Below the pieces are notes generated by a model. It saw only the letters and a list, made by a program, of their open reading frames with translations. It did not search any database and was not told the DNA's origin. DNA of 64,000 bases from the IMG/VR virus record IMGVR_UViG_3300030389_002443, positions 3,132 through 67,131 of that record; one strand, given 5' to 3'. This DNA comes from a virus. The position numbers were made by a program, and so were the translations under genes. Below, piece by piece: positions 4,029 to 48,800 of this stretch. Numbering within the stretch: position 1 is the stretch's first letter; each line of letters starts with the position of its first letter.

Positions 4029-4072
4029 GGGGCAACAAAGATAGAACCATATGGTGTTGTCTTTGCAACCCC
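4029..4072 (+). repeat. Dispersed palindromic element copy 2
   Basis: GGGGCAA-CAAAGA-TAGA-ACCATATGGT-GTTG-TCTTTG-CAACCCC. Confidence 0.85.
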
Positions 4073-5781: not shown

Positions 5782-5984
5782 AAAAGGCTGACAAATACGA
5801 AGGATTGATTGATGCAGAAGGTTACGTTGACTACGATGGATTAGACCACCTACTAGCAGAAGTCAAGCGGTTACGTGAAGAATTGGATGCCGCAGAAGAT
5901 GTTATTCTATATGCTCTTGATAGAGTGGGTAACGATGATGATGCTAAGAAAGTATTTGAGGATTTCTTAGAGGGGATTAAATGA
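5778..5984 (+). CDS. Hypothetical protein with LLAEVKRLREEL segment
   Basis: 12-aa segment identical to one in 5262..5597. Confidence 0.6.
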   Translation: MKKADKYEGLIDAEGYVDYDGLDHLLAEVKRLREELDAAEDVILYALDRVGNDDDAKKVFEDFLEGIK

Positions 5985-6052
5985 TACCTAGATATTGGTG
6001 GAATGAATAACATGAGATAATAGGTTTTTATATGGGCTAATAGGTTTTTATA

Positions 6053-6097
6053 GGGTTGCAAAGACCTTACCATATGGTAGTAGTCTTTGGCTACCCC
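6053..6097 (+). repeat. Dispersed palindromic element copy 3
   Basis: GGGTTG-CAAAGAC-CT-TACCATATGGTA-GTA-GTCTTTG-GCTACCCC. Confidence 0.85.
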
Positions 6098-6293
6098 GCC
6101 AAAAAAAACGAAAAAAAAGAGGGAGGCCACTAAAAAGTGACCCCCCAATTTCGCCCTCGTGGGAACCATGGAACTGAACTATTTCAAGCCGATTAAGCAA
6201 CATTAACGAATAATGATTTACCCCCATGGTGATTAAGTACCGAGCCTAAATCTATCTCGTATTATTAGGTTTTATTCACCTGTAAAAATGACT

Positions 6294-7316
6294 CTATGCT
6301 TGTATAGGACTAAATTGCATTGAAAGGTCTAAGGCTCTCCTTTTAGAAGTTAAACCATCACCTAATAATGAATTTTCTAATCCTTTTGAGACTTCCTCTG
6401 GGGTCATATTGTAACCTTTTGATGAACTGACGCATTTTTGATGGTCAACCCAAAAAGTAAAGGCATTATATGCGGCCCAAGCGGTATTTTTCATATTACC
6501 TACTAGGTTAGTTTCATGTGACATATTTTGAATTAACTTAGTCAATATATTTTGACTTCTTGTAGTTAATTCGCCATCGTCATTATATGATAACTTAGCA
6601 GCCTCTATGAAATATGTTTCAATTTGTTCGGGTGTTAATTCTACATTCATTAAGTTTTGATAAAACTCTTTAGTCCTTTCAAAATCCTCATTGATAAGAC
6701 CTAATGCTTCTCTAGCAGCATCTACTTTATTGAACATATTTTTAGTATGTCTAATATTGTAAATTTCTCTTCTACTTCTACCATCTGCTAAAGCCATTTG
6801 TAAAGTATTATTGCAAACTACTCTTACGAATGTAGGCATAATTTTTACTGAACCGCTACCATCATGAGTATTAGTTAAAAGAAGGTAAGGGATTACTTCA
6901 TCACCTTCACCAATTTTTACATGATTTGGTAGTTTAGCCAATATCCAAATTGTTCGACCACCTTTCATTGAACCACATGTTTCATACATTGCTAACCCTT
7001 CTTGAACTATTTCATCAAAAAAGGCGAATGCGTCCACATTGTCAAGTACTTGGTACTTTTCACCAACTATCCCAAGAGGCAATTCATTATCGCTTCTAAC
7101 GGTAGCATATTTACTAGATATTGGTCTAAAGGAGCCATCTAACATCTTTTGGTAAACTAGTTCTTTTGTTACCATCCATTCAAGATGCGCTTTTTCAAGT
7201 GCTTCTTTTGATGTCATTAACCCTTCTACTTGTGTCCCTAACCCATGCCATGGGATTCCATTAGCATAAGCCATTTCTACTTGTCCATGCATGTTTGTAG
7301 TAAGATGATGAGCCAT
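6294..7316 (-). CDS. DUF932 / phage-plasmid (TIGR03299-like) protein
   Basis: PWHGLG, LGIVGEKYQVLDN, YETCGS..GGRTIW, LLLTNTHDGSGS, PTFVRVVCNNTL, IRHT, TAWAAYNA motifs. Confidence 0.85.
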   Translation of the reverse strand: MAHHLTTNMHGQVEMAYANGIPWHGLGTQVEGLMTSKEALEKAHLEWMVTKELVYQKMLDGSFRPISSKYATVRSDNELPLGIVGEKYQVLDNVDAFAFFDEIVQEGLAMYETCGSMKGGRTIWILAKLPNHVKIGEGDEVIPYLLLTNTHDGSGSVKIMPTFVRVVCNNTLQMALADGRSRREIYNIRHTKNMFNKVDAAREALGLINEDFERTKEFYQNLMNVELTPEQIETYFIEAAKLSYNDDGELTTRSQNILTKLIQNMSHETNLVGNMKNTAWAAYNAFTFWVDHQKCVSSSKGYNMTPEEVSKGLENSLLGDGLTSKRRALDLSMQFSPIQA

Positions 7317-7427
7317 TAAGACCACCCTCCACAACAAACAGACACTAGGAGATTTGCCTCTCCTCTAGCATAACATAACGTTGTATAACTATCTGTCATG
7401 ACCTAGTAAGAGATTACCCTATATATA

Positions 7428-7485
7428 GGGGTTGTCCAAAGACTAACAACCATATGGTTCAATCTTTGGATAGCGTAGCGACCCC
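7428..7485 (-). repeat. Dispersed palindromic element copy 4 (inverted, divergent promoter region)
   Basis: TCCAAAGA-CTAAC-AACCATATGGTT-CAA-TCTTTGGA; reverse complement matches copy 5 and its TATA context. Confidence 0.85.
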
Positions 7486-7535
7486 ATAAGTGCATTATTC
7501 CAAAGCATTATAAGGGGAAACTGCTAGGAGAGTAT

Positions 7536-7655
7536 ATGGCAGATAGAGATGAACGAGAAATTAAGAAAGAAATAGAAAAACTATGGGTAAATGCAACAAT
7601 TCAAGAATTAGAGTGTATTGAAGACTATGTATCTTACATACTAAGGTGGAGTTGA
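7536..7655 (+). CDS. Small early protein (39 aa)
   Basis: Manual translation; follows TTATAA at 7508 and AGGAG. Confidence 0.45.
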   Translation: MADRDEREIKKEIEKLWVNATIQELECIEDYVSYILRWS

Positions 7656-7875
7656 TTTAGAATGATTACAACATGTTGTGGGATTATGATATTTGTGCAT
7701 TTGGATTGTCCTTTCTGTGAGGTGGTAGAATAATGGCTAAATATATACTAACAGATTGGAAAGGATGCTATGAAGATGATGAACCCCATGTTTATATCTT
7801 CAAAAATAAAGATGAATTAATTGAAAAGTTATTAGGTTTTTTAGATGATGATATTAGATTAGAGGTGGTTAAGTA

Positions 7876-8172
7876 ATGGCACTAATAATTAGAACAGATG
7901 GTAGTACAGAGAAAATAAATAATCCTACCTTAGAACAATTACAAGAAGCAGTAGGAGGTCGCATAGAATATGTCCGTATTCGAGAAGGATTGATAGATGG
8001 GTCTAACTATATGTATTGTAATGAGGAAGGAAAAAATGAAGGGTTAGAGTATAATGAACATGCCACTATACTTGCAGAGGGTTGTATCATGAGTTGGGAT
8101 TTTATTGTAGGTAATGTGGTTGTAATGTTTGAAGGAGAAGATGGTAATCTTGGAGTTCTTGAGGAGGAGTGA
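7876..8172 (+). CDS. DUF3846-like protein
   Basis: TLEQLQEAVGGRIEYV ... CNEEGK..GL.YN..AT ... DFIVGNVVV. Confidence 0.8.
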   Translation: MALIIRTDGSTEKINNPTLEQLQEAVGGRIEYVRIREGLIDGSNYMYCNEEGKNEGLEYNEHATILAEGCIMSWDFIVGNVVVMFEGEDGNLGVLEEE

Positions 8173-8366
8173 TTAATTTGTATAAGATAATAAGATTTAG
8201 ATTTAAAGGTAACAATCGTGTAATAAAACGTAATCTTACCTTAGAAGAAGCACAAGCACATTGCAGAAGAGATGATACTAGAGGAGATGGTTGGTTTGAT
8301 GGGTATGCGGAGCAATAACATGAGATAATAAGAAAAGGTAGTTGTTTATAGGGACACTACGTTTTT

Positions 8367-8404
8367 TCAAAGATTGAACCATATGGTAAGGTCTTTGATA
8401 CCCC
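8367..8404 (+). repeat. Dispersed palindromic element copy 5
   Basis: TCAAAGA-TTGA-ACCATATGGT-AAGG-TCTTTGA-TACCCC then TATATATA. Confidence 0.85.
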
Positions 8405-8468
8405 AGTATATATAGGTAATTTTCTGACTATATCATGACACAAAAAAATGTGACAGGAGGCAATAAGA

Positions 8469-8753
8469 ATGACTGAAAAACCAAAAGTTAGTGTTGATAG
8501 GCACAGGATGACTGCGGGAGAAATAAGGACAGTTTTGAAAAATCATAAACCCACATATGTTTGGGGCATGATATCAGAAGGTAATAAAATTGAGTATCTA
8601 AGTTTACACTTTGATTTTCTAGGTGTTGAATTTACAATATACTCAACTCACAATTATCCTTGGGATGAAGATACTAATGTTGATTGGGGTCAATTCATAA
8701 TTGATGCAAGATTGAAAGGTATAACTGAAACCCATTATGTTGGTGAGGATTGA
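8469..8753 (+). CDS. Hypothetical protein
   Basis: AGGAGG RBS; ORF track. Confidence 0.7.
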   Translation: MTEKPKVSVDRHRMTAGEIRTVLKNHKPTYVWGMISEGNKIEYLSLHFDFLGVEFTIYSTHNYPWDEDTNVDWGQFIIDARLKGITETHYVGED

Positions 8754-8797
8754 TTAGATATATATCAGAACAATAAAAACGGTAAAACCGTCTACTT

Positions 8798-8827
8798 GTC
8801 CTCTAAGTGCTGCGGCATTTAGGGGAC
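8798..8827 (+). ncRNA. 13-bp RNA hairpin at 5' side of ncRNA cluster
   Basis: GTCCTCTAAGTGC-TGCG-GCATTTAGGGGAC with two G-U pairs. Confidence 0.5.
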
Positions 8828-8850
8828 TTCTTATATTCAATAATAAATAA

Positions 8851-9060
8851 GCGAGTGTGAAATAGAAATAACTCAAAAAGGCTTCGGCTAGGTTGAGGGT
8901 TATTATCTGTTGGCGTTACGAAACCTTGTATTTTACAAGGCAGGTTCGATAAAACAGTAAGTAAATAAGATAAAAAAGAATTAAAGATTACACCTATACC
9001 CCTTTAATGACTGTTATCTTATCTTACTGCGTAAGAGAAGGGTTCAATTCCCCCGCTTGC
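8851..9060 (+). ncRNA. About 210-nt tRNA-mimic structured RNA
   Basis: GCGAGTG/CGCTTGC closing stem, three long hairpins (one with C-UUCG-G), GGG-TTCAATT-CCC T-loop, T-rich tail. Confidence 0.65.
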
Positions 9061-9075
9061 TTTATTTTATTCTTT

Positions 9076-9147
9076 GAGGTTATCTCATATCAGATATAGG
9101 CAAGGGGTGTGTCACTTTCCCATCACGATTTGATATGAGGTAATCTC
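9076..9147 (+). ncRNA. 72-nt hairpin RNA with 20-bp stem followed by a poly-T terminator
   Basis: GAGGTTATCTCATATCAGAT pairs with ATTTGATATGAGGTAATCTC (3 G-U); T-run 9148-9165. Confidence 0.55.
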
Positions 9148-9169
9148 TTTTTTTTTATTTTTTTTGATA

Positions 9170-9194
9170 GGGTTCCAAAGACTTAACCATATGC
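9170..9194 (+). repeat. Dispersed palindromic element copy 6 (left half only)
   Basis: GGGTTC-CAAAGAC-TTA-ACCATATG. Confidence 0.7.
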
Positions 9195-9324
9195 TAAGAT
9201 TTTCCGAGAGTACCAATGCTTAAACGCATTTAACCAAACCCAATCTATAATAAACATCTCTCAATACGAACAATATATTGTTATCATTTTAGTTATGTTT
9301 TTATTAGGTGAGGAGTGGGTTGTA

Positions 9325-9650
9325 TATTATATAGTATATTATATTAGTATTAATGTATTATATTATCTATTATATATTGTATTAGTAAGGGAGGGTATTA
9401 ATCTCATCTATCTCACTTATATCTCATTTTAGGACTTATTAAAAATCTTTATTTTTTATATTGTTTTTAATGATTTTAATATATATATCTCATATCTCAT
9501 ATATCTCACTCATGTATGTGTGTGAAAAAAACCCCTTAAATGGCCTTGGGGGTGTTTCCTTTTATTTTTGACTGAGATGGTGAGATATGAGATATAAGGG
9601 AGCAGTGCAGCGTTTAGCCACTGAGATGAATAAGAGATGAGTGAGATGAA
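9325..9650. other. Candidate replication origin: AT-rich zone with inverted ATCTCA/TGAGAT iterons
   Basis: ATCTCA at 9401, 9410, 9421, 9487, 9494, 9503; TGAGAT at 9573, 9581, 9588, 9622, 9642; no ORF. Confidence 0.55.
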
Positions 9651-9732
9651 GCAGACGGGTAATTGCAAGAGATGGCTTCACCCCACGAATATATTGTAAG
9701 AGGGGCTTTTATTTAAAATTCGGGGAGTGTAT

Positions 9733-10566
9733 TTAGGTGACAATATTTTTTGCGAAAGTTGTGGCTAGATGTAAATCTTTGATTGGGTCTATTGGAATAT
9801 CGTTGTTGATGGCCCAAGTTACCAAATCTTCTGTGGCTAGATTAGCACCAGAATCTTTAGCAAAAGGACAGCCACCTAAACCACCAATACTAGAGTCAAA
9901 TTGTCTGATGCCCAAGTCATAGGCATGTTGTACATTGTCTAGAATAGGTTCTGATTTTTCATTGTGGTGGAGATGTATTGCCCATGTAGTTCCCATGTTT
10001 TTTATTAGGGGCGAAAGTTGTGAGATAGATTCTTTATTGGCTAGGCCAGATGTATCAGATAGGACAACAGTTGAGCCTAATATTGCCGAGGATTGTAATG
10101 TGCGTTTGAGATGTTCTGGGTCAAACTTTCCTTCAACTGGACAACCAAATGCATTAGAAACATAGACACGAATATCATCTTTAGGAATGCCGTAGAGCAT
10201 ACTTCTGTATCGTGAAAAGAGTTGTTCTAGGCTTATGCCAAAGTTATCTTTATTGAATGTTTCAGAAGGAGAAAGACACACATTGAATTTTTTAGCACCT
10301 ACTGAAATTGCACGTTTAAGTCCTTTTTCATTAGGTACAAGAACTCCAAGATTACAATCAAGGTGCGAAACTTTTCTATAGAGTGCATCACTGTTAGCCA
10401 TGTTCGGAACTTTCTTCGGATGGACAAAACTTCCAACTTCTATATTTTTTAAACCAGCGTTGTATAATAAATTAACCATAGTTACTTTGTCTTCTAAAGG
10501 GATTACAGATTTGATTCCCTGTAAACCATCTCTAGGGCCGACTTCGTAAATGGTTATTTTTTCCAT
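9733..10566 (-). CDS. hmgL: Hydroxymethylglutaryl-CoA lyase (DRE-TIM family)
   Basis: YEVGPRDGLQ, IEVGSFVHPKKVPNMA, HxH, DSSIGGLGGCPFA, NLATEDL. Confidence 0.9.
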   Translation of the reverse strand: MEKITIYEVGPRDGLQGIKSVIPLEDKVTMVNLLYNAGLKNIEVGSFVHPKKVPNMANSDALYRKVSHLDCNLGVLVPNEKGLKRAISVGAKKFNVCLSPSETFNKDNFGISLEQLFSRYRSMLYGIPKDDIRVYVSNAFGCPVEGKFDPEHLKRTLQSSAILGSTVVLSDTSGLANKESISQLSPLIKNMGTTWAIHLHHNEKSEPILDNVQHAYDLGIRQFDSSIGGLGGCPFAKDSGANLATEDLVTWAINNDIPIDPIKDLHLATTFAKNIVT

Positions 10567-18101: not shown

Positions 18102-18656
18102 ATGAGCAAGAGAGTATTAGTAATAGGTGCGGGTGGAATAGGTAGTAATTTAATCCCAATTCTTAGCAGAATAGGATTATACAACATCACTGTATTTGAC
18201 CCAGACATAGTAGAAGAAAAAAATATCACTTATCAAAACTTTAAGTTAGGTGAAGTAGGGATGAAAAAAGCAAATGTAATGGTTAAGTATAAAAAAGTAA
18301 AAGGTGAACCATATGCAATATTAACTAAAGAGCAAATTAAGGGATATGATTTGGTTGTATGTTGTGTTGATAACTTAGCAGCAAGAAGACTGCTATATGA
18401 TTATGATAAGCCTTGGTTGGATTTAAGAGCGCAAGGTAGAGGGTGTGTCCTTATCTCATATAAAACGCCAGTCGAAAAATATAACGAATTGTTAGCGGGG
18501 CCAGATGGTAATTTCTCATGTCAAGGAAATGAATGGGATGGTAAAGCAAAGGGTATCAATTGTATGCATTACGTTGTGGCTGGATTAGGCGCACAATGGA
18601 TTCAAAGATGGTTCGCTGGAGATTACGTTGATGATGAAATGGTGGTGTGGTTTTGA
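18102..18656 (+). CDS. ThiF/MoeB/E1-like adenylyltransferase
   Basis: VLVIGAGGIGS, FDPDIVEEKNITYQ, KKA, DLVVCCVDNLAAR, candidate catalytic SC; no CxxC zinc pairs. Confidence 0.9.
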   Translation: MSKRVLVIGAGGIGSNLIPILSRIGLYNITVFDPDIVEEKNITYQNFKLGEVGMKKANVMVKYKKVKGEPYAILTKEQIKGYDLVVCCVDNLAARRLLYDYDKPWLDLRAQGRGCVLISYKTPVEKYNELLAGPDGNFSCQGNEWDGKAKGINCMHYVVAGLGAQWIQRWFAGDYVDDEMVVWF

Positions 18657-19177
18657 ATTTAGAAAACGCAATAGTCAATCAAGAATGGAAACTAGAAATA
18701 GAAAGTGCGTGGCAAAGATTCAAAGATTGGGGGTATGTAAATAAATATCTTAGGGAAGATTTAACACACTATCTTAGACATACTAAAGCAGGTCAAGAAG
18801 TTTTAGATACTATTTGGGACATGAGTAAAACAGCATTTGATTATGATAGAGAAGTACAAGTAGTAATAGACAGCAACAATAAATTGTTCATTACTTTTGG
18901 TACTGGCTCATTAGTTTGGTTTCATGATAATGAAGAATTAACTGGTATGAGAATGCCCATCAAATGTTGGATTCATACTCACCCATTTGGTAAGGCTTAC
19001 TTTAGTGGAACGGATTGGAACACAATCAATACTTATGAGCCTATAATGGATTCAGCGATTGTCTTGGGTGGCGCAGAACGAATGACTTGGATTAAAGGAA
19101 AAAACGAAACATACTTTGAAGAATCTGTTCCAATTAATAAAGGGCCAGCAGCATTGGGCTTTTGGGAGGAGGAATGA
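18647..19177 (+). CDS. JAB/JAMM (MPN+) metallo-isopeptidase
   Basis: E (REVQ) ... H-T-H-x7-S-x2-D (HTHPFGKAYFSGTD). Confidence 0.85.
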   Translation: MVLNLENAIVNQEWKLEIESAWQRFKDWGYVNKYLREDLTHYLRHTKAGQEVLDTIWDMSKTAFDYDREVQVVIDSNNKLFITFGTGSLVWFHDNEELTGMRMPIKCWIHTHPFGKAYFSGTDWNTINTYEPIMDSAIVLGGAERMTWIKGKNETYFEESVPINKGPAALGFWEEE

Positions 19178-28238: not shown

Positions 28239-28990
28239 TAATAAATATGGATAGTTTTCTAAAGGCAATCAAGTATTGTACAATGAAGGGCAAATGGGGC
28301 GATAAAAGTGGTGAGTTATCATCTCAGATAACTTGTAAAGTCGAAGATAATAATTTATATTTGCTTAGTGCTAACAGAGCAAACTCTGTTGCTGTAGCAT
28401 ATAAGTTGGTCTTAGACAACGCAGAAGATGTTGAGTTTGTTTTAGATTTAGAAGTGTTGCCTATGTTGAAAACCTTTTCTGGTGAGGTTGAGTTTGAGGT
28501 TGATAATGTTTTGACAATATTGCAAGGTAGTGATTCTGCTACAGTTCCGTTAGTCGCTCATCATGAAAATGAATCAGCGATTGATAGATTTAGTCCTAAG
28601 TTAATCAATTGGATTGATGAAGGTTTTGGGCCAGACTTTACATTCGGTTCAACTAAATATGACTTAACAGTAAACTTAGATGCTGATAGTTTGACTCAAT
28701 CTATTAAGGCTTGTGACACAGTGGGCGCATCTAATTATATTTTGAACTTTCATCCAAATGAAAGATTATATTTACAAGCATCTAAAGGTCAAAGAAAAAT
28801 ATCTAACGAATTACAAATGAGAGAACATAGTGGTAACGCTGCTACTGTTCCTTTTGCAGCACCTATTCATGTTTTATTTCAAAGTGAAAACGAATGGGAT
28901 AATAGAATCAATTTGAGATTACATGATGACATGCCGTTATTTGCAAGTACAGATTTCGCTGCAATAGTAGTAGCACCATACATGAGTTGA
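28235..28990 (+). CDS. Sliding clamp (PCNA-like), divergent
   Basis: About 251 aa acidic two-domain alpha/beta pattern, C-terminal VVAP; between ATPase and PolB, RFC nearby. Confidence 0.7.
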   Translation: MIINMDSFLKAIKYCTMKGKWGDKSGELSSQITCKVEDNNLYLLSANRANSVAVAYKLVLDNAEDVEFVLDLEVLPMLKTFSGEVEFEVDNVLTILQGSDSATVPLVAHHENESAIDRFSPKLINWIDEGFGPDFTFGSTKYDLTVNLDADSLTQSIKACDTVGASNYILNFHPNERLYLQASKGQRKISNELQMREHSGNAATVPFAAPIHVLFQSENEWDNRINLRLHDDMPLFASTDFAAIVVAPYMS

Positions 28991-30636
28991 GATACATGAT
29001 TATCACACACAAAGATAATACTATTTATCTTAGATGGCGTGATGAAAATGGTAATAGATTAGAAAAAGAAGTTACTGATTTTAGACCATATTTTTATGTA
29101 AATTCTGATGAAAGAATGCCGCAAGCATATAATATTCGTGTTACTAATTCTCAAGGTAGAAAGATGAAACTACCTCAAGAGTTTGTTTACGAGAGAACCA
29201 ACCATGTCAATTTAGAAAAACAACCTTTGACTAAAGTTATGGTTACTAAATATAATGATATTAGAACCGCTAGAAAATACTTTGATAAAACATACGAGGC
29301 TGATGTAAGTTTCACTCATCGTTATTGTATTGATGAGATGACCGAAATACCAGAATATGATTTACGCAAGTGGTATTGGGATATGGAATGGATGACTACA
29401 GGAGAATATGATGGGGCAATAACAACTATTGCTGTTTATGATAATTATGCAGATTGCATAAACTTATACTATTGGACTCCCAAAGATGCTAAACTAGATA
29501 TGATTGTAGTAGATGCTGTCGAGTATCATTTTAATTCAGAAAAAGATATGCTTGAGGCTTTTGTTGCTGATGTAGAAGAACAAGACCCAGACATGTTGAT
29601 TGCATGGTTTGGGTTACAAGCAGATGTCCCTAAGTTATTTGAAAGGTTAGAAGAAAATAATATTGATATTGGTAGACTATCTCCTATAGGATTAGTTAAA
29701 CCTAGTAAGAAAGCATGGAATCAAATATCACCTATATCTCAACCTATTTATGGTAGATTGTGTCTAAACTTAGACCATGCGTTTGAAAGACAATGGAACG
29801 ATGCACAACGAGGAACTTTACCATCTACTGCTTTAGATTTCGTTGGCAATCTTTTATTTGGAGAAGGTAAAAAGAAAGAGTCTAAATTTACGGATAAAAA
29901 CGAATTCTTTAGAAGGGCTTGGTTAGAAGACACTCAAAATTATTTAGATTATAATATTCAAGATGTGGTATTACTAAAACGAATAGATGATGAAAACGCA
30001 ATATCAGAATCGATACTAGCATTACAACGATTACTAGTTGCACCTTTCGATGCTTGTTTCTATGCTTCTCACATGGGGGGTATTTATTTCATGAGACACG
30101 CTGATTGGAAAGTACCAACAGGCGATAAGGACGCTGAAAGAGTAGAGGTAACTGGGGCTATGATATTCGACCCAGAAATAAACAAAACACATGGTAGGCA
30201 TGATAATGTTGCGGCCTTCGATTTTGCACAACTATATCCTTCTATGATGATGGCTAGGAATATTAGTTGGGAAACTAAATCTCGTACACCTACAGATTTT
30301 GCTTGTAATTTAGCGACACCACAAGACTTTAGCCCTGTAATCAAAAAAGATATGAGGTATTATAAAACAGATAAACTAGGTTTGTTACCAAGGTCTGTTC
30401 TTAATCTTAAACGACTTAGAGATGAGTACAAGTCTAAAATGAAAAAGGCAGACTCTAAAGAAGAATATCAAAAATGGTTTAACAATCAGATGGCTGTAAA
30501 AAGACTTATGGCCAGTTTCTATGGTGTAACTGCGTTTCCTAAGTTTGGTTGGTATGACCCAGATTTGGCTAACAGTATTACTGCTAGTGCTAGAGAAGCA
30601 ATTAGACATGCTGCTAAAGTTGCGGAGGGATTATAA
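28987..30636 (+). CDS. polB: Family B DNA polymerase, N-terminal part (exonuclease, motifs A and B)
   Basis: FRPYFY, YEADV, WDME (ExoI), YNIQD (ExoIII), DFAQLYPSMM (A), KRLMASFYG (B). Confidence 0.92.
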   Translation: MRYMIITHKDNTIYLRWRDENGNRLEKEVTDFRPYFYVNSDERMPQAYNIRVTNSQGRKMKLPQEFVYERTNHVNLEKQPLTKVMVTKYNDIRTARKYFDKTYEADVSFTHRYCIDEMTEIPEYDLRKWYWDMEWMTTGEYDGAITTIAVYDNYADCINLYYWTPKDAKLDMIVVDAVEYHFNSEKDMLEAFVADVEEQDPDMLIAWFGLQADVPKLFERLEENNIDIGRLSPIGLVKPSKKAWNQISPISQPIYGRLCLNLDHAFERQWNDAQRGTLPSTALDFVGNLLFGEGKKKESKFTDKNEFFRRAWLEDTQNYLDYNIQDVVLLKRIDDENAISESILALQRLLVAPFDACFYASHMGGIYFMRHADWKVPTGDKDAERVEVTGAMIFDPEINKTHGRHDNVAAFDFAQLYPSMMMARNISWETKSRTPTDFACNLATPQDFSPVIKKDMRYYKTDKLGLLPRSVLNLKRLRDEYKSKMKKADSKEEYQKWFNNQMAVKRLMASFYGVTAFPKFGWYDPDLANSITASAREAIRHAAKVAEGL

Positions 30637-30863: not shown

Positions 30864-31098
30864 GGCTACACATATATGTAGAAGATGTAAAGGAACTGAG
30901 GCTTATAAAACAGTGATAAAAGGTAAGGGGTTAGTTGTGTGTGTAGAATGTGATTACGAATGGGTTCCACATGGTTATTGTTTACATTGTAGAAAAGCAC
31001 TACAACCTATTGGTTCTGCTAGAATGAATGGCGCACCACATAAGGATTGGAGTTCTAGAAAATATCACAAAAAATGTTGGAAGGAGTTGAATTTATGA
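30853..31098 (+). CDS. Double zinc-finger protein inserted in split polB
   Basis: CRRC/CVEC and CLHC/HKKC. Confidence 0.65.
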   Translation: MSSEATHICRRCKGTEAYKTVIKGKGLVVCVECDYEWVPHGYCLHCRKALQPIGSARMNGAPHKDWSSRKYHKKCWKELNL

Positions 31099-31898
31099 AA
31101 GTAATATACGCTCACACAGATTCTTTGTTTTGTCCTGTTGAGTCGATAGACCACGCTAAAAGCACATGTGATTATCTCAATCAACAGGTTAGAGAAATAT
31201 TCCCTAATATTCTTGGTTTAGACCAGCACCCAGTTACTTTAGAATTTGAAAAGTTTTATTCTTCTCTCGGTATAGGTATTACTAAAAATCGAAATGCTGG
31301 TTTCATATCTTGGAAAGATGGTGAACATTTGGATGAGCCAGAATTTGTAGTCACAGGTTTCTCTGTAAAAAAATCTACAGAAATACACATTGCAAAAATT
31401 GTGCAAGAGATGGTTTTGAAAATGTGGGCGAATGGCAAATCTGAAAAGGAAGTCACCAAATATTTAAAGCAAGCATACCAAAATATCAAGAAAGGTAAAA
31501 TAGAAATGGGTAGTTTTCTTAAAAGGTCAAGGCTTAGAAAATCTATTAATGATTATGCAACATTAGCGGGTGGAGTTGCAGGTGCAGTATATTACAATAC
31601 TCACTTGAATCCTTCTGACCCCATAACAGATTCTTTTATCACAATCAAATGCAATATATTATCTGGCCCTAAAACTGTTCCACTAAATGATGGGACTTCT
31701 AGGGTAGCGACTTATATTTCAGTCAAAGAAAAAAATGAACTATTGCCTTTATTAGAAGAAGGTAAGATAGAAATAGATTATGGGTATTATGCCGACTATT
31801 GTATTAACAAGGCTGACCCTATATACAAAGCAATGGGTTGGGATATGTATCACATTTACGCTGACCCGAAACAAAAAACATTGGAGGATTGGTTTTGA
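31095..31898 (+). CDS. polB: Family B DNA polymerase, C-terminal part (motif C, thumb, PIP box)
   Basis: Begins VIYAHTDSLF; LEFEK, KNRNAG; ends QKTLEDWF. Confidence 0.92.
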   Translation: MKVIYAHTDSLFCPVESIDHAKSTCDYLNQQVREIFPNILGLDQHPVTLEFEKFYSSLGIGITKNRNAGFISWKDGEHLDEPEFVVTGFSVKKSTEIHIAKIVQEMVLKMWANGKSEKEVTKYLKQAYQNIKKGKIEMGSFLKRSRLRKSINDYATLAGGVAGAVYYNTHLNPSDPITDSFITIKCNILSGPKTVPLNDGTSRVATYISVKEKNELLPLLEEGKIEIDYGYYADYCINKADPIYKAMGWDMYHIYADPKQKTLEDWF

Positions 31899-42420: not shown

Positions 42421-42851
42421 TATTCTACCTCCACTGAAAGAGTAATATCTATTTGGTCTGAATTATTAAAAGGGCCGATTGCATCAAAAGGAAATCTAGC
42501 CAACATTATACTTTCTACTGTTGCCTCTGTACCATCTGTATTAGATTCTCCAGTAATCTGAACACCTTCTAATCTCATCTCATCGAATTGATTATCTTGA
42601 GGTAACTCCCCGAACACACCAAATTCTCTAATCGCACTAGCAGCCAATTGACTACCTGTTACTGTTAATTTGAAATCTGTACTAGTATCACCAGTATTAG
42701 TAATTGTTAGTGTTTCATTTGCAGTCAAAATTGGAACATCCAATGTGTTTGCATTCGGGTTAGTAGTATCTCCACCTATCCCAACATTACCTGTCGTAAA
42801 AAAAGTTTGTAAAAATAAATTTACTTTTTTCTTAGCATCTTCTGTTATCAT
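42420..42851 (-). CDS. Tail tip / collar-type structural protein
   Basis: VGIG..T....TL, IREFGVF, MLARF pattern. Confidence 0.6.
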   Translation of the reverse strand: MITEDAKKKVNLFLQTFFTTGNVGIGGDTTNPNANTLDVPILTANETLTITNTGDTSTDFKLTVTGSQLAASAIREFGVFGELPQDNQFDEMRLEGVQITGESNTDGTEATVESIMLARFPFDAIGPFNNSDQIDITLSVEVE

Positions 42852-45800
42852 GTTAAATCCTCATCTAAAATTACGCTTGTCTCTACTGAACCTAAACTTG
42901 GGTTGAATCCCACGCTGTTAGTCGCTACATTAACTGCATAATTAAATCCAATGGTAAATGGACTACTAAACACACCTGTTTTAGTAGCAACTAGTCTTAC
43001 TCCTTTGATTTTCATAGTGTCAAAGAAGTTGTTTGTGTCATTGACTGATTTAAATTTACTTGCTCTTAAAAAGGCTAAAGTCTTTTTACTTTTAACCATC
43101 AGTTCAGCAAGTCTTTCACTAATCCCTTTATTGTAAGCCCCTATTTCTAATTCCATTATACCTAGATTATCATACCTTATTTCTAGTACAACATATCTAT
43201 CTGCGGGAATTCCTCTACTTGGAATATCTAAACTAATTATATCTCCAACTCTAAGATACTCTAACCCTACCATAGATATTTTAATCGTTATCCTAAAGTT
43301 ATTTTTGGCATAAAAGTCTAACAATTTATTTGCTTTAACATCTGCTTCTTCTTGAGTTCTTATAGTTTCATCAACTTCCTCAAAGGTTTTCTTTCCAACT
43401 TCTTTTATACTTGCGCCTAATCTTCTAATAGATTTAACCCCAGAACCATAAACTATTACTTCATTATAGAAATCGTATTGTGATTGTTCTTTAGACACAT
43501 CTATAATATTACTAGTTTCTTCTGATATACCATAACCCGAATAATCTAAATTAGCATTATCTGGTCTAATTTTTATTCCTTCTGAGGTGATAGTAATTCT
43601 TTTATCTTTAAATTCTGTTAAAAATTGAATGGCTTTGTAGACATCTATTCCTGTAAATTCTGGCCCAGTAAAGTATGGGTATTCTACAGTTGATTCTGTA
43701 AAATCAATATTGTTAATTTTCATTATATCTTCTACTATATCTTCTGTTTCCATAGCAATAGTGGCAGTAGAGGCTATGTTTGCTTTTACTGGGTTTCTTA
43801 TTTTAGAAGGTAATGGAGTTTTTACTGTAAATATTTCCCCAACAGAAACTATACCTGCCATTTTTTGACTTACTTTTTCACCAAAATTTATGTTACAAGC
43901 CGTCATCAAACCTGCTGGTGGTTTAGATACACTCATTTGTTTTCTTTCTTGCGCATCTCCGTCATTTAATAACACGTCATAAGACTTACCACTTTCAAAT
44001 CTTTTTCCACTGCCCCCATCTCCAAAAATAGTCGTAAAGTAATTGAAAGTTGGAGGGCTTGAATTTATATTAGTAACTCCTCTCGGAACAATATGAATAT
44101 CATCACTAGTTGAATCCATATTAACTAATACATACATAGATTGAACTGCTTCTTTATATCCAAATACCTCTCTTTTATCGCTTACATTTTCTCCATTCCA
44201 TAATTGAATATGTGGGACACTTGCATACATCTTATCATCAAAAGGTCTTTTCGTAGTAGAGGAACTTAGCGTGTATAGATTAATTGAAGATGGGGAATCT
44301 GGCCATAAACATGTTTCTGATGGTTTCATTACTTTATAATAATTAGAAATATATGGAGTACTAGTGTTGACATTATCTACAATCAACACATGTTCTCTAG
44401 TATCTGCGCCTTGTGATACGCTATGACTAATTACGTGCATAATATGTTTAGGTAACAATCCTTCTTCTGAGGCCATGAAAGAATATTGAGAATCATTAGC
44501 ACCAGTTCCAGCATTAGTCCAAGTTCCACCAATAGGGTATCTTCTAGTACTATCTGCTGAGTTTATGGTTCCTTGAGTTCTACCTTGATAATATCCTTCT
44601 GTAGATACAAGATAATACCCTGTTAAATTAGGAGCAAAAGCAAGCCAATGGTTATCATCCATTTCTGAATTATCTCCTTCTTTTATTGTTATTACTGCTT
44701 GCGACCCAGTATTAGATGATGTATCTAATCCACTTGGTTTGTGAGTCAATTGTGAGAGCGCACCGAAACTAACCCCTAAATTAGATTGAGCATATTGGCC
44801 TAAATGCAAATATGGTTTAAATAATATTTTAGCACCATCTGCAACATTGGTTGGTTTTTCTTCTGCATTAAATGTTACAGCAGCAAAATCTTTATCATAT
44901 GCTCTTTTAATTTTTGGATTAGAAATACCATTACTAATATTAGTAGTTTCTGCGAATTGAAGATATGGGGCAGAAGGAAACTCATTTGCACCATCGGAAT
45001 TAGAACGTAATTTTTTACTTGACATTTTTAAGTATATTCTGTTTTCTTTTAATATACCAGTACCAACAGCAGAATACAACGCATCTGAAACTGGGAAAGT
45101 CATACCAGTTGCTAATTGTCCACCTTCTTCATCTGCGTTATCTATAGTAAATCTATCTAAAACAACCCCTTTTAATCCACGATAAATATTTCTACCTTGG
45201 CTAAGATAATATAATATTTTAGAAGAATGAACTACATCTCCTTGTGCGTAATTTGCCTGTGTTCCTGCTGGTGCAGAATCGGGACTTATGAACATATAAT
45301 TGTTAACTGTAGTTGCCCTAAATATAGGTGGTAACATACATAATGCTAATGTATCATCGTTTCCTCTTTTTAAATTTTCATTATTTGCTAAGTCTTCTTC
45401 TGTTGCCCCAGTTAAAGTAATGTTAGTAGGAGTCACTACATTTGCAGTGCCAACATTGTGAACAATACCTACTTGCGCCCCTGCATTATCATACACTTTA
45501 TCTCTAGGGCTAAAACTCCAATTAGCATAAGTTCCATCTACAGTTATACTTGCGGAAGCACCAGCAGTTATTGCCCCGTCCACCAAAGTATCTGTTTCAG
45601 TTGGTGATAGAGGGAAATATGCTGAATTTGTAGAAGTTACTGAATTATCTGGTTTGCTAAACACTGCATTTGTTCCAGTTGGATTTTGTTCAATGTCATA
45701 ATTCTTTAAGGCAAAATTAGTATCTCCAACATATTTACCAGAAAATATTGCCCCTTTAGTTTGCGTTATATCATTAAATGTTGCTACATTTCCTTCCTTA

Positions 45801-48800
45801 TGGGCTAATATAGAATCTGCTGTTCCTATGCCACCCAATCTAGGTAACCAATATGCAGCGTTATTTGTAAAATCCGCATCATCTGTAAATCTAAGACAAA
45901 ATATATTTCCAGTATATTGGGTATCTGAGCCTGTGGGAAATTCCACTGCCGCACTAAATGTTAATTTATTATCAGCAGATGACGTTGCTGAACCATCTGT
46001 AGCGACTTTACCTAAAAATTCACCTCTGTCGGTATATATGTATGGCCACCCTCTATCATTAGTGCTATCATTAAAATCAGTATCAATTTGTGAAGCGGTA
46101 ACTGCGCTGCCATTTTTTGTAACTGTTGCTACAGTTGTACTATCCCATCCAGTAATAGCGTAATTACCATTAGTTAATCCTAAATTGTTTAATGTTTTTA
46201 ATGGTAAAAAATTAGGAACTGCTAAAGTGTCAGCATCATCAAATCTTTGTCTATTAGTGATTTCACTTTCATTTATTGGAGATTCTGGGTCAACTACATT
46301 AAAGTGCCAATCAAAGGTTAAATCTATCAACCTCATTAAACCAAACCTTTTGATTTGATTCCCAGTAATAGAGGACGATGTTATCGGTACAGTTTCAAAA
46401 GATTCATCCGTCATTTCATGTGATGATATAGAACCTACATAATTTTCATGAGTTACTTCTGATGAGATTCTTGCTCCAGAATCGTGTAATACTAGATTGT
46501 AATCTGTCAAATCTCTAGCAGAAAAACCTAAATGATTTGGCCTAGACATTGATTCTGGATATAAATCGCTTGCTGCGAAAATATGATAACTTATTCCTTT
46601 TGGGTCTATTTTATCTAATACAGTTTGTCCTTGTGTTACTGGATTATGTCTCCAGAATTCTAATGGATTATATTCACTAGTACTACTGGCTGATAGTGTT
46701 TTACTATCAGTAGAAGTAACAGCAGTAACTTGTTCAAATCCCCAAGGCCCACCAAGATTAGAATATTGAGTACCGTATGACATAGTTGAACTTGTCATTA
46801 ATTTTGGGAGTTTATCAAGTAATTGTTTGGTTTCGTTTCTTATTGGCTCGGATATAGTATTACTACCATATACTGGGCCGACTCCTCTAGTTTCTAAACT
46901 ACCTATCTTCTTTTGATTACTATAAGCAGTATCATAATAATCATAATCATAAGGGTACAATTTTGCACCCATTTGGACATCATTGGTAGCAGATGTTCTT
47001 CCGTTTATTCTTTGGCTAGATTTATATGAACTAGCATAAGCATGAATATTACCAACATCTCTACCATTATATTCTATGAATTTTTCACCGATTCTAATAT
47101 CTCTTGCTGCCCTATATAAACCACCTTTTTTAGATTTCTGTAAATCAACATAGCGATATATTGGCTTACCAAATCTAAAATTAGTTCCAGTTACAGTTAT
47201 GGTTAAAGATGTAGTCCATTCGGCATAATTGACTGCCCCATTTATTAATGGTTTTCTACTGTTACCTAAGACTGGATTAACTGCTTGTAATATGCCACCA
47301 TCATTTAACCCTTGAGTGTTTATAAAATATAAACCATGATTGTGTTGTGTAGAAACATAGAGTTGTTCATTTTCTGCTAAACTAACCCCATCTGGAAGTT
47401 TAGACTCTAACAAAATATCCCATTCTGTCGGGGTTTGTGCGCCAGCCCTTGCTCTAATCTTGTAAACGATTCCAACAAAAGTACCATCACTTTTGTAAAT
47501 AGGATTGCCTTCACCTATGTTTGTATTAGCACTTCCCGTATCTACAGTAATTTCATTTCTATGACCTGCACTGTAAGTTGAACCATCAAAATAAGTTTGA
47601 GAATTATCGTCATCACTAGCAGCATCTATTTGTGTAGTAGTTACCGTCACTGTTTCAAACCTAACATCTTCTACATTTCTATCAACTCTTGCTAAAATAG
47701 CAGGACAATTAGGGGCGAGTTCAATTATTGCTTCACCTTCACCACTTTCAATACTTACTATATTATAATGAGAAAGAGAATTAATTGTGTTTACTGCTTT
47801 ATTTCTAGCATTAGCAAAAAAACCAACATCAGTATCACCAATATCTCTAACGTTATCTAAGTAATATCCTCTAGCCCTACCGTCAGAATCATCACTAGTA
47901 TTAGCCAATAGTTTACCTTCTTTAGATGTGACTAAGTTAGAACTTGATGAAAATGTTAATTTTTTACCACTAGTAAAGAAAAATCCTTTATTAGACGCTC
48001 CTTTTAAAGAAGTTGGAGTATTTGTTAGTGTAGGATGAGATTGAATTGCCTTTCCAAAATAAACACTATTAGTATGATTTGAATTATATATGTTGATAGA
48101 TGATTTATACAAGGTTTGATTTCTTGCACTGTATGCGACTGAACCATCATCTAAAGTTATTGTATTACTAGAAATATTAGAAACTACCCCTATAAAATTA
48201 TAATCTCCAGCACTGCTAGTAAATACTAAATCTCCTGTACTTAATACGCTACCATCACTTACAGTAAATGATGTATCACCAATAAAAATTTCACCATCAG
48301 AATCATTAGTTAACGCAGTCCCAGTATCTTGAATTTCATAATATGGCCCAAGTGTAGAGTAAACCCAATCCTCTGAAAAAGTATAATTTTTATTAAGCAC
48401 TGGCCCTAACAATTTAGATACATCACTTCTACCAGTAATCATAAGTTTGTGCATTCCAAATTGTATTTTTTCTTCTATTGTTTCTACACTACCTTTGAAC
48501 ATTACTTTTTCTACAATATACGCACCAGCAAAATAATCTAGAATAGAACCAGTTTTCTTATTAGTATCTACTAGATTTACAGATGCTTGATGTGTAGTAC
48601 TTCCAGCAACATTTGTTAAAGTATCAATTGGAAAGTATGCTTGAGTTATACCATTAGTAGTTAATCCAGTAGTGGGTGAAAAATCTCTATCAAAATCTTG
48701 TATTTTTACGTATTGATTTTTAGAATCTCCATATTTTATTTTTATGGTTTGACCAGATAAACTATCATCTCCAGCCAATGTCAATTCTAACCCGTTGATT

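Follow-up and report, generated by a model that had tools for sequence, protein, structure and literature searches.

The MALAT1 mascRNA and the tRNA-miRNA RNAs of murid herpesvirus 68 each have a tRNA-like fold within a longer transcript, and this fold recruits RNase P and tRNase Z, which set the ends of the RNA. In YrlA-type bacterial Y RNAs, a T-loop-containing tRNA-like module is joined to further helices, and the ends of the RNA form a Ro-binding stem. The tRNA-like domain of transfer-messenger RNA (tmRNA; RF00023) combines an acceptor stem that has a G-U pair with a T arm and has no anticodon arm; according to the part of PMC4131195 that is accessible, a virus-encoded precedent exists as a domain-only form in mycobacteriophage DS6A, and tmRNA-SmpB has not been found in archaea. 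Here, we describe a stretch of viral DNA of 64,000 nt (hereafter, the window), which is part of a 67-kb IMG/VR record (IMGVR_UViG_3300030389_002443) that is 71% complete. Positions 8851–9060 of its + strand very probably represent a gene for a stable, independently folding non-coding RNA (ncRNA) of ~210 nt that belongs to no known family. The likeness of this RNA to tRNA is confined to one half of the molecule, which comprises the closing stem and a consensus T-loop on a 3-bp stem. We tentatively propose that tRNA-end enzymes cut this accessory viral ncRNA out of an early transcript, a statement that, taken as a whole, falls a little short of an even chance.

For the fold of this RNA, the predicted layout is a five-way junction with three long arms (arms 1–3; Table 1), which are closed off by a terminal stem and the T-loop hairpin next to it. 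All helices that had been named in an initial annotation of the same DNA could be located in the sequence, each in its assigned place, and all are contained in the minimum-free-energy (MFE) fold of the + strand (−51.6 kcal/mol). That annotation had also described the RNA as having no canonical anticodon loop and no encoded CCA, and neither is present in 8851–9060. The closing stem has a G-U as pair 3 and a U-G as pair 6, shows pair probabilities of 0.86–0.99, and is invariant in sequence in every variant found. It can be extended by two A-U pairs (8849–8850 with 9061–9062), such that the terminal stem is 7–9 bp long. The T-loop hairpin ends one base before the 3′ strand of this stem, and no open reading frame (ORF) that overlaps the hairpin exceeds 41 codons. 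In arm 3, every pair of the helices is Watson-Crick. K-turn and C/D-box motifs were not seen on reading the RNA sequence.

Compared with shuffled sequences, the fold of 8851–9060 has a z-score of −2.3, and four of 200 shuffles are equally good. The reverse strand folds more weakly than the + strand (−44.7 kcal/mol, z-score of −1.7). The whole intergenic stretch (8754–9170) is strongly structured (z-score of −6.1, with none of 100 shuffles equally good) because two further hairpins, designated B and C, flank the RNA on its 5′ and 3′ sides, respectively.

Natural variants provide a second line of evidence. The comparison of structures included two full sequences, namely those of the window and of contig L089, together with a third variant read from contigs of sequencing runs X2 and X6. 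A scan of metagenome contigs with the word formed by the T arm and the 3′ strand returned two contigs. The first (L088) carries an RNA identical to that of the window and has 99.95% identity with the window across its 2,034 nt, whereas L089 is a variant that is ~95% identical to window positions 5972–9939. When folded alone, L089 has the same five-helix layout (z-score of −3.26, with none of 200 shuffles equally good), and the same layout was recovered by RNAalifold from the window and L089 together. Across hairpin B, the RNA, and hairpin C, 10 pairs differ between these two sequences and seven of them stay paired. Double compensatory changes from the window to L089 occurred at 8799/8826 (U-A to C-G) and 8865/8907 (G-C to A-U), and five one-sided changes in L089 retain pairing through G-U. 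One pair is broken in L089, namely the basal pair of arm 1 (8861/8911), and the two further differing pairs are artifacts of gap placement in homopolymer runs. By element, arm 1 has one double change, four one-sided changes that keep the pair, and the broken basal pair, and hairpin B has the double change at 8799/8826 and a change from G-C to G-U at 8809/8816. The changes in arm 3 are confined to its loops, and its paired positions do not vary. At the tip of arm 1, GGC-UUCG-GCU in the window corresponds to GGC-GAAA-GUC in L089, such that the tetraloop was swapped and the 3-bp stem was retained. Overall, differences between the two sequences were found in 12 of 194 paired columns and 25 of 172 unpaired columns. 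Since changed pairs were kept through G-U, the selected structure lies on the + strand RNA. These patterns indicate selection on the + strand RNA structure in arm 1 and in the leader hairpin B.

The third variant comes from X2 and X6, which are DNA runs of other studies, and its arm 2 loop carries an insertion of 15 nt (after 8932 and 8933). As judged by eye from the unfolded form, this insertion adds four complementary positions per side and would lengthen the helix from 7 to 11 bp. The same variant carries G9031A in the junction, A9046G, which keeps a purine in the T-loop, and G9140A, which converts a U-G pair of hairpin C to U-A. A candidate pairing between the loops of arm 3 and hairpin C was considered and rejected, as L089 has a shortened C-run and a shortened G-run, whereas X2 and X6 shorten the G-run alone.

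Features shared with canonical tRNA (RF00005) include the terminal 7-bp stem with a G-U pair, a U that follows the seventh base of this stem like U8 in tRNA, the G-C-closed T-loop, a CCA that is not encoded, and a U-rich trailer on the 3′ side, as archaeal tRNA genes have. The T hairpin is placed exactly as in tRNA, immediately ahead of the 3′ strand of the closing stem. The loop sequence, UUCRAUU, fits the UUCRA consensus, and the fourth base of the loop (9046) is A or G among the variants, which matches the purine at position 57 of tRNA. Mimicry of tRNA would be a reasonable reading of this half of the predicted fold. Unlike a canonical tRNA, the RNA is 210 nt in length, has three long arms in a five-way junction and a 3-bp T stem, lacks both a D arm and an anticodon loop, and is detected by neither ARAGORN nor Rfam. 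The place of the D arm is taken by arm 1, which has 51 nt and does not conform to a tRNA D arm. If the arm 2 loop is read as 7 nt (UAUUUUA), it has A33 and U37, whereas the anticodon loop of a tRNA needs U33 and a purine at position 37.

Two proposals of the initial annotation depend on these details. The first is the label G3-U70 for the G-U pair of the closing stem. A G-U is indeed the third pair listed, but it would shift to pair 4 or 5 if the extra A-U pairs are counted; since the stem is extendable, the label hinges on where the 5′ end of the RNA lies. The second is a role of the RNA as a decoy for anticodon nucleases, which is unlikely. The sole anticodon-like loop, that of arm 2, has the A33/U37 combination, and a natural variant swaps it for a longer stem with another loop. 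Since arms 1 and 2 tolerate the replacement of their loops, these loops are structural, which argues against an anticodon-loop decoy.

For known RNA families, Rfam 15 provided no match at gathering score in the whole 64 kb, ARAGORN with default settings (with or without introns) called no tRNA or tmRNA gene in the window, and blastn of the RNA against phage and plasmid records found no match. The idea that this is an undescribed RNA therefore stands. The best sub-threshold Rfam matches are to C/D-box and H/ACA-box snoRNA models (20–23 bits, E = 0.29 to 5.3) and are at chance level. ARAGORN finds canonical tRNA-Met, tRNA-Leu, and tRNA-Arg in related viruses, and therefore works in this virus group. 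In common with mascRNA and the murid herpesvirus 68 RNAs, there would be a tRNA-like fold in a longer transcript, and a hairpin lies directly downstream here too. However, those RNAs are eukaryotic or from an animal virus and are near-complete cloverleaves, whereas here only the acceptor/T half resembles tRNA and its processing is a prediction. The RNA is also like the YrlA-type Y RNAs in being a non-coding RNA with a T-loop-containing module attached to additional helices, whereas its ends form an acceptor-like stem instead of a Ro-binding one, and there is no Rfam match. With the tmRNA domain, the RNA has in common an acceptor stem that includes a G-U pair, a T arm, and the lack of an anticodon arm. 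ARAGORN reported no tmRNA by default and found no tag reading frame; with its threshold lowered to 70%, the one call that it made was permuted, spurious, and on the other strand. Unlike tmRNA, the RNA has no long helix 2 and no tag frame, and its host domain is one without tmRNA-SmpB in the accessible part of PMC4131195, which agrees with the earlier remark that archaea lack tmRNA.

Several observations weigh against the excision of this RNA by tRNA-end enzymes. The initial annotation had proposed covariation as a check. Compensated changes occur in arm 1 and hairpin B, whereas the closing stem, the T hairpin stem, the arm 2 stem, and the arm 3 pairs are invariant. With the closing stem and T hairpin invariant, the tRNA-like part has no covariation support, and a shuffle control of covariation on two rows (238 of 500) provided no information. 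In the T stem there are 3 bp, compared with 5 bp in tRNA, and the stack of the closing stem and T hairpin has 11 bp (with G8859-C9053 counted), compared with 12 bp in tRNA. The Rfam tRNA model has no match in the window even at E up to 10, and the only related Rfam match is to 13 nt of the tmRNA T arm (10.6 bits, compared with a gathering score of 47; E = 0.06). In a 417-nt context, the MFE fold re-pairs both strands of the closing stem, which is retained in the centroid alone. By chance, at least seven contiguous pairs form between two A/T-rich flanks in 47% of shuffles, and at least nine in 8.9%. The word GGTTCRANNCC is expected 0.54 times per window and has at least one copy in 42 of 100 shuffles; in related viruses, chance closures with 7/7 pairs within 400 nt were found for 12 of 22 T-loop words located outside canonical tRNAs. 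Moreover, the RNA is missing from the nearest complete relative and from all 37 related virus records, and is therefore dispensable. Finally, the sole RNA-library contig inside the RNA has a depth of 2 and may be carried-over DNA.

Some of these points may also be explained by a real viral ncRNA whose likeness to tRNA is incidental. The T-loop would then be a folding module of the kind that many large RNAs contain, the ends would result from transcription start and termination or from other nucleases, and the RNA would act as a scaffold or sponge for proteins, unconnected with tRNA enzymes. The location of all covariation outside the tRNA-like part, the short T stem, the failure of the tRNA and tmRNA models to score, and the frequency at which the T-loop word is expected are in line with this explanation. 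In addition, conservation extends from the RNA to hairpin B, hairpin C, and the T-run, such that all of these may be parts of one longer RNA. The position of the T hairpin exactly where tRNA has it, the fit of the loop to UUCRA with its one variable base staying a purine, and the U8-like base after the stem are less easily reconciled with an incidental likeness. The same applies to the energy of the closing duplex (−13.4 kcal/mol), which only 0.9% of flank shuffles attain. We regard an incidental likeness as somewhat unlikely.

Under the proposal of excision by tRNA-end enzymes, transcription would start from the operator/TATA region near 8369–8420 and produce a precursor composed of hairpin B, the RNA, and hairpin C, with its end at the oligo-T of 9148–9165. 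The acceptor/T-loop minihelix would serve as a handle for the host RNase P, which would cut at or next to 8851, and for tRNase Z, which would cut just after 9060; CCA addition may come after these cuts. Cleavage would free and stabilize the ~210-nt RNA, and its conserved unpaired parts would form a surface for a host or viral partner. The candidates for this working surface are the 3′ strand of arm 1 with the CUAGGUUGA internal loop, the J2/3 segment AUAAAA, and the 15-nt loop of arm 3. Transcription, processing, and release are each put forward tentatively, with a chance somewhat below even. Under this proposal, the likely role would be in host takeover or counter-defense during early infection. 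Charging of the RNA with alanine is possible and is the least supported step. A further idea is that of a chargeable tRNA-like RNA, in which the minihelix is processed, CCA-added, and alanylated, and the arms bring it to the ribosome or into contact with a host factor of defense or quality control. This idea is quite improbable; if true, the RNA would be a counterpart of bacterial tmRNA or of the tRNA-like ends of plant viruses, in a domain without a known case.

The genomic context is that of a small cassette. The RNA sits in a 540-nt gap between an ORF of 94 aa and the next ORFs. An operator-like motif, AAAGA-N4-ACCATATGG, has nine matches in the window compared with 0.99 expected, and seven of the nine are located at five sites (4037–4064, 6060–6077, 7450–7467, 8369–8396, and 9177–9194), often on both strands. 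This motif is found at the edges of small early-gene cassettes and probably marks promoters or recombination points for cassette swaps between relatives. The last two of these sites bracket the ORF, hairpin B, the RNA, hairpin C, and the T-run. Judging from the sequence, the transcription unit of the RNA likely has its promoter region at 8369–8420 and its terminator in hairpin C with the T-run. Hairpin B may either belong to the precursor as a leader hairpin or terminate the 94-aa ORF. Among the DNA contigs, those of X2 and X6 join 8471 directly to 8778, such that the ORF is removed and the RNA is retained (depth of 29.5–31.7 in X6); the left flank at 9160 differs in a further X6 contig (depth of 13.4). 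As the ORF was lost and the RNA was kept in X2 and X6, the RNA is the constant product of an accessory cassette. The gene for the RNA is placed in a flexible early region of the virus genome, and the RNA cassette is present or absent among co-occurring relatives.

This arrangement has a bearing on another explanation, namely that the RNA is a cis-acting 3′ untranslated structure that stabilizes or terminates the mRNA of the 94-aa ORF. Consistent with this, the RNA is located between the stop of the ORF (8753) and the strongest terminator-like site (9076–9165) and has no clear promoter of its own. Two RNA-library runs (X19 and X20) cover only small parts of the stretch, and their contigs, which may stem from carried-over DNA, show no RNA ends, no added CCA, and no strand or level. 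In X20, two contigs span the ORF and continue from it into the leader, up to 8850; the last seven letters are unaligned and, by reading, fit a variant with an AAT insertion. In X19, one contig of 151 nt with a depth of 2 lies wholly within the RNA (8887–9037) and carries G9031A, which is present in DNA runs too. However, the deletion in X2 and X6 (8471>8778) eliminates the ORF yet spares the RNA, at a higher depth in X6, and the start codon left after this deletion, by reading, meets a stop after three codons. A function limited to the mRNA of this ORF is unlikely.

Table 1. Features of the RNA at 8851–9060 and of the cassette around it (positions in the window).
Feature	Positions	Strand	Description	Evidence
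Operator-like palindrome and TATA-like run	8369–8420	+	AAAGA-N4-ACCATATGG on both strands, then TATA-like run	Motif copy at 8369–8396
Optional 94-aa ORF upstream of the RNA	8469–8753	+		No Pfam, PHROG, or NCBIfam match
Hairpin B	8798–8827	+	13 bp, UGCG loop, then U-rich tail	Fold; compensation in L089
Closing (acceptor-like) stem, 5′ strand	8851–8857	+	GCGAGUG	Fold
Arm 1	8861–8911	+	Helices of 6 and 8 bp, internal loop, 3-bp tip with C-UUCG-G cap	Fold
Arm 2	8919–8948	+	Helices of 4 and 7 bp, 3-nt loop (alternatively 5 bp with 7-nt loop UAUUUUA)	Fold
Arm 3	8955–9029	+	Helices of 7, 9, and 7 bp, 3-nt bulge, internal loop, 15-nt terminal loop	Fold
T-loop hairpin	9040–9052	+	GGG-UUCAAUU-CCC	Fold; pair probability of 0.6
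Closing stem, 3′ strand	9054–9060	+	CGCUUGC, then U-rich UUUAUUUUAUUC; CCA not encoded	Fold
Hairpin C and T-run	9076–9165	+	20-bp outer stem (9076–9147), then T9-A-T8	Fold; G9140A keeps the pair
Next operator-like motif copy, right bound of the cassette	9177–9194	+		Motif; collinearity with relative G001 resumes at 9161

It is very improbable that the RNA represents a tRNA gene that is disrupted or carries an intron, or a tRNA pseudogene in decay. Several introns are possible in archaeal tRNA genes, as stated in the accessible part of PMC4033280, and when the threshold of ARAGORN was lowered to 80% and introns were allowed, it placed at 8849–9063 a tRNA-Ile(aat) interrupted by a 123-nt intron. 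This model, which has a 3-bp T stem, was rejected because it cuts through arms 1–3 and has a poor D arm; these arms are supported by compensatory changes. ARAGORN, which does detect canonical tRNAs in related viruses, made no call here at its default settings, and a bulge-helix-bulge intron site, with two 3-nt bulges 4 bp apart, was not seen on reading the fold. A DNA-level element, such as an attachment site with the 3′ end of a host tRNA, an origin, or a set of protein-binding palindromes, deserves hardly any weight. In its favor, arm 3 is a perfect Watson-Crick inverted repeat, and the cassette, which has operator-like palindromes at its borders, is exchanged between relatives. However, when 185,579 species were scanned with one genome each, the 21-nt sequence of the T arm and 3′ strand, with either A or G at 9046, was exactly matched in none of them, which argues against an attachment site that derives from a host tRNA gene. 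The scanned ORFs include no integrase, and the changes in arm 1 and hairpin B keep pairs through G-U, which is workable on one strand only.

For its distribution, the RNA is known from a single virus lineage. Its covariance model, which was built from one sequence and recovers its own copy at E = 1e-79, has no match at E up to 10 in any of 37 related virus records, seven of which are at least 90% complete. The closest relative (G001) is 92% complete and lacks the RNA; in its place are 1.6 kb of small ORFs, and collinearity with the window breaks there and resumes at 9161. Both genomes share a neighboring gene (9733–10566, − strand in the window) that encodes a hydroxymethylglutaryl-CoA (HMG-CoA) lyase-like protein with 94% identity at the protein level. 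This gene has a match to Pfam HMGL-like and to PRK05692 (205.6 bits, below the cut-off of 246); it is an unusual viral metabolic gene and is common to two other IMG/VR records. A search with this neighbor identified two loci, both without the RNA, and no loci were found with the 94-aa ORF and a DUF932 protein as search handles. A scan of genome contigs based on the chaperonin found no relative, and IMG/VR contains no exact copy of the words that were taken from the T arm, from arm 1, and from the junction of arms 2 and 3. Among the 37 relatives, the T-loop word has 34 matches at 28 distinct sites, all of which are in open frames of 100–640 codons or in canonical tRNAs, and these sites contain no family of giant tRNA-like RNAs. 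The 11-mer of the T hairpin (GGTTCAATTCC) is also present in 14 related loci, where it is coding, within a conserved open frame of ~280–360 codons, and unrelated to the RNA.

Besides tail genes and genes for a GroEL-type chaperonin and a ThiF-like protein, this virus has archaeal replication genes, which encode an RFC small subunit, a Hef/Xpf-type nuclease, an ATP-dependent DNA ligase, and a split PolB. In the accessible part of PMC5434244, magroviruses are described as uncultured viruses that are abundant in the ocean and have a replication module, with GroEL in groups B, B1, and C and with tRNA-Leu and tRNA-Arg in group B; Marine Group II archaea are proposed as their hosts. The gene content fits this description and suggests a magrovirus-like tailed virus. 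Given this match, the host is most likely archaeal, and a marine Group II archaeon (Poseidoniales) is the most likely candidate.

Other genes of the window also have notable arrangements. The family B DNA polymerase (PolB) is divided between two ORFs (28987–30636 and 31074–31898) that are ~440 nt apart. The first contains the exonuclease domain and continues into the polymerase domain, of which it has the start, and the second corresponds to positions 222–378 of the polymerase profile. Just upstream of the chaperonin gene, 18102–19177 contains a ThiF/E1-like ORF (Pfam ThiF, E = 3.9e-19) followed by an ORF with a weak match to the JAB domain (E = 0.0048). These two may represent a ubiquitin-like conjugation pair in the virus. 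In addition, the block of tail genes includes a single ORF of 2680 aa (42848–50890, − strand).

In the literature searches of this analysis, we found no structured RNA beyond ordinary tRNAs for magroviruses or other archaeal viruses. If its likeness to tRNA is incidental, the RNA described here is still a new orphan RNA fold, with support from natural variants and a narrow distribution. Should its processing or charging resemble that of a tRNA, the known range of tRNA mimicry would extend to the viruses of archaea. A virus-borne RNA that borrows the end-processing signature of tRNA would provide a first handle on RNA-based host manipulation in magroviruses.
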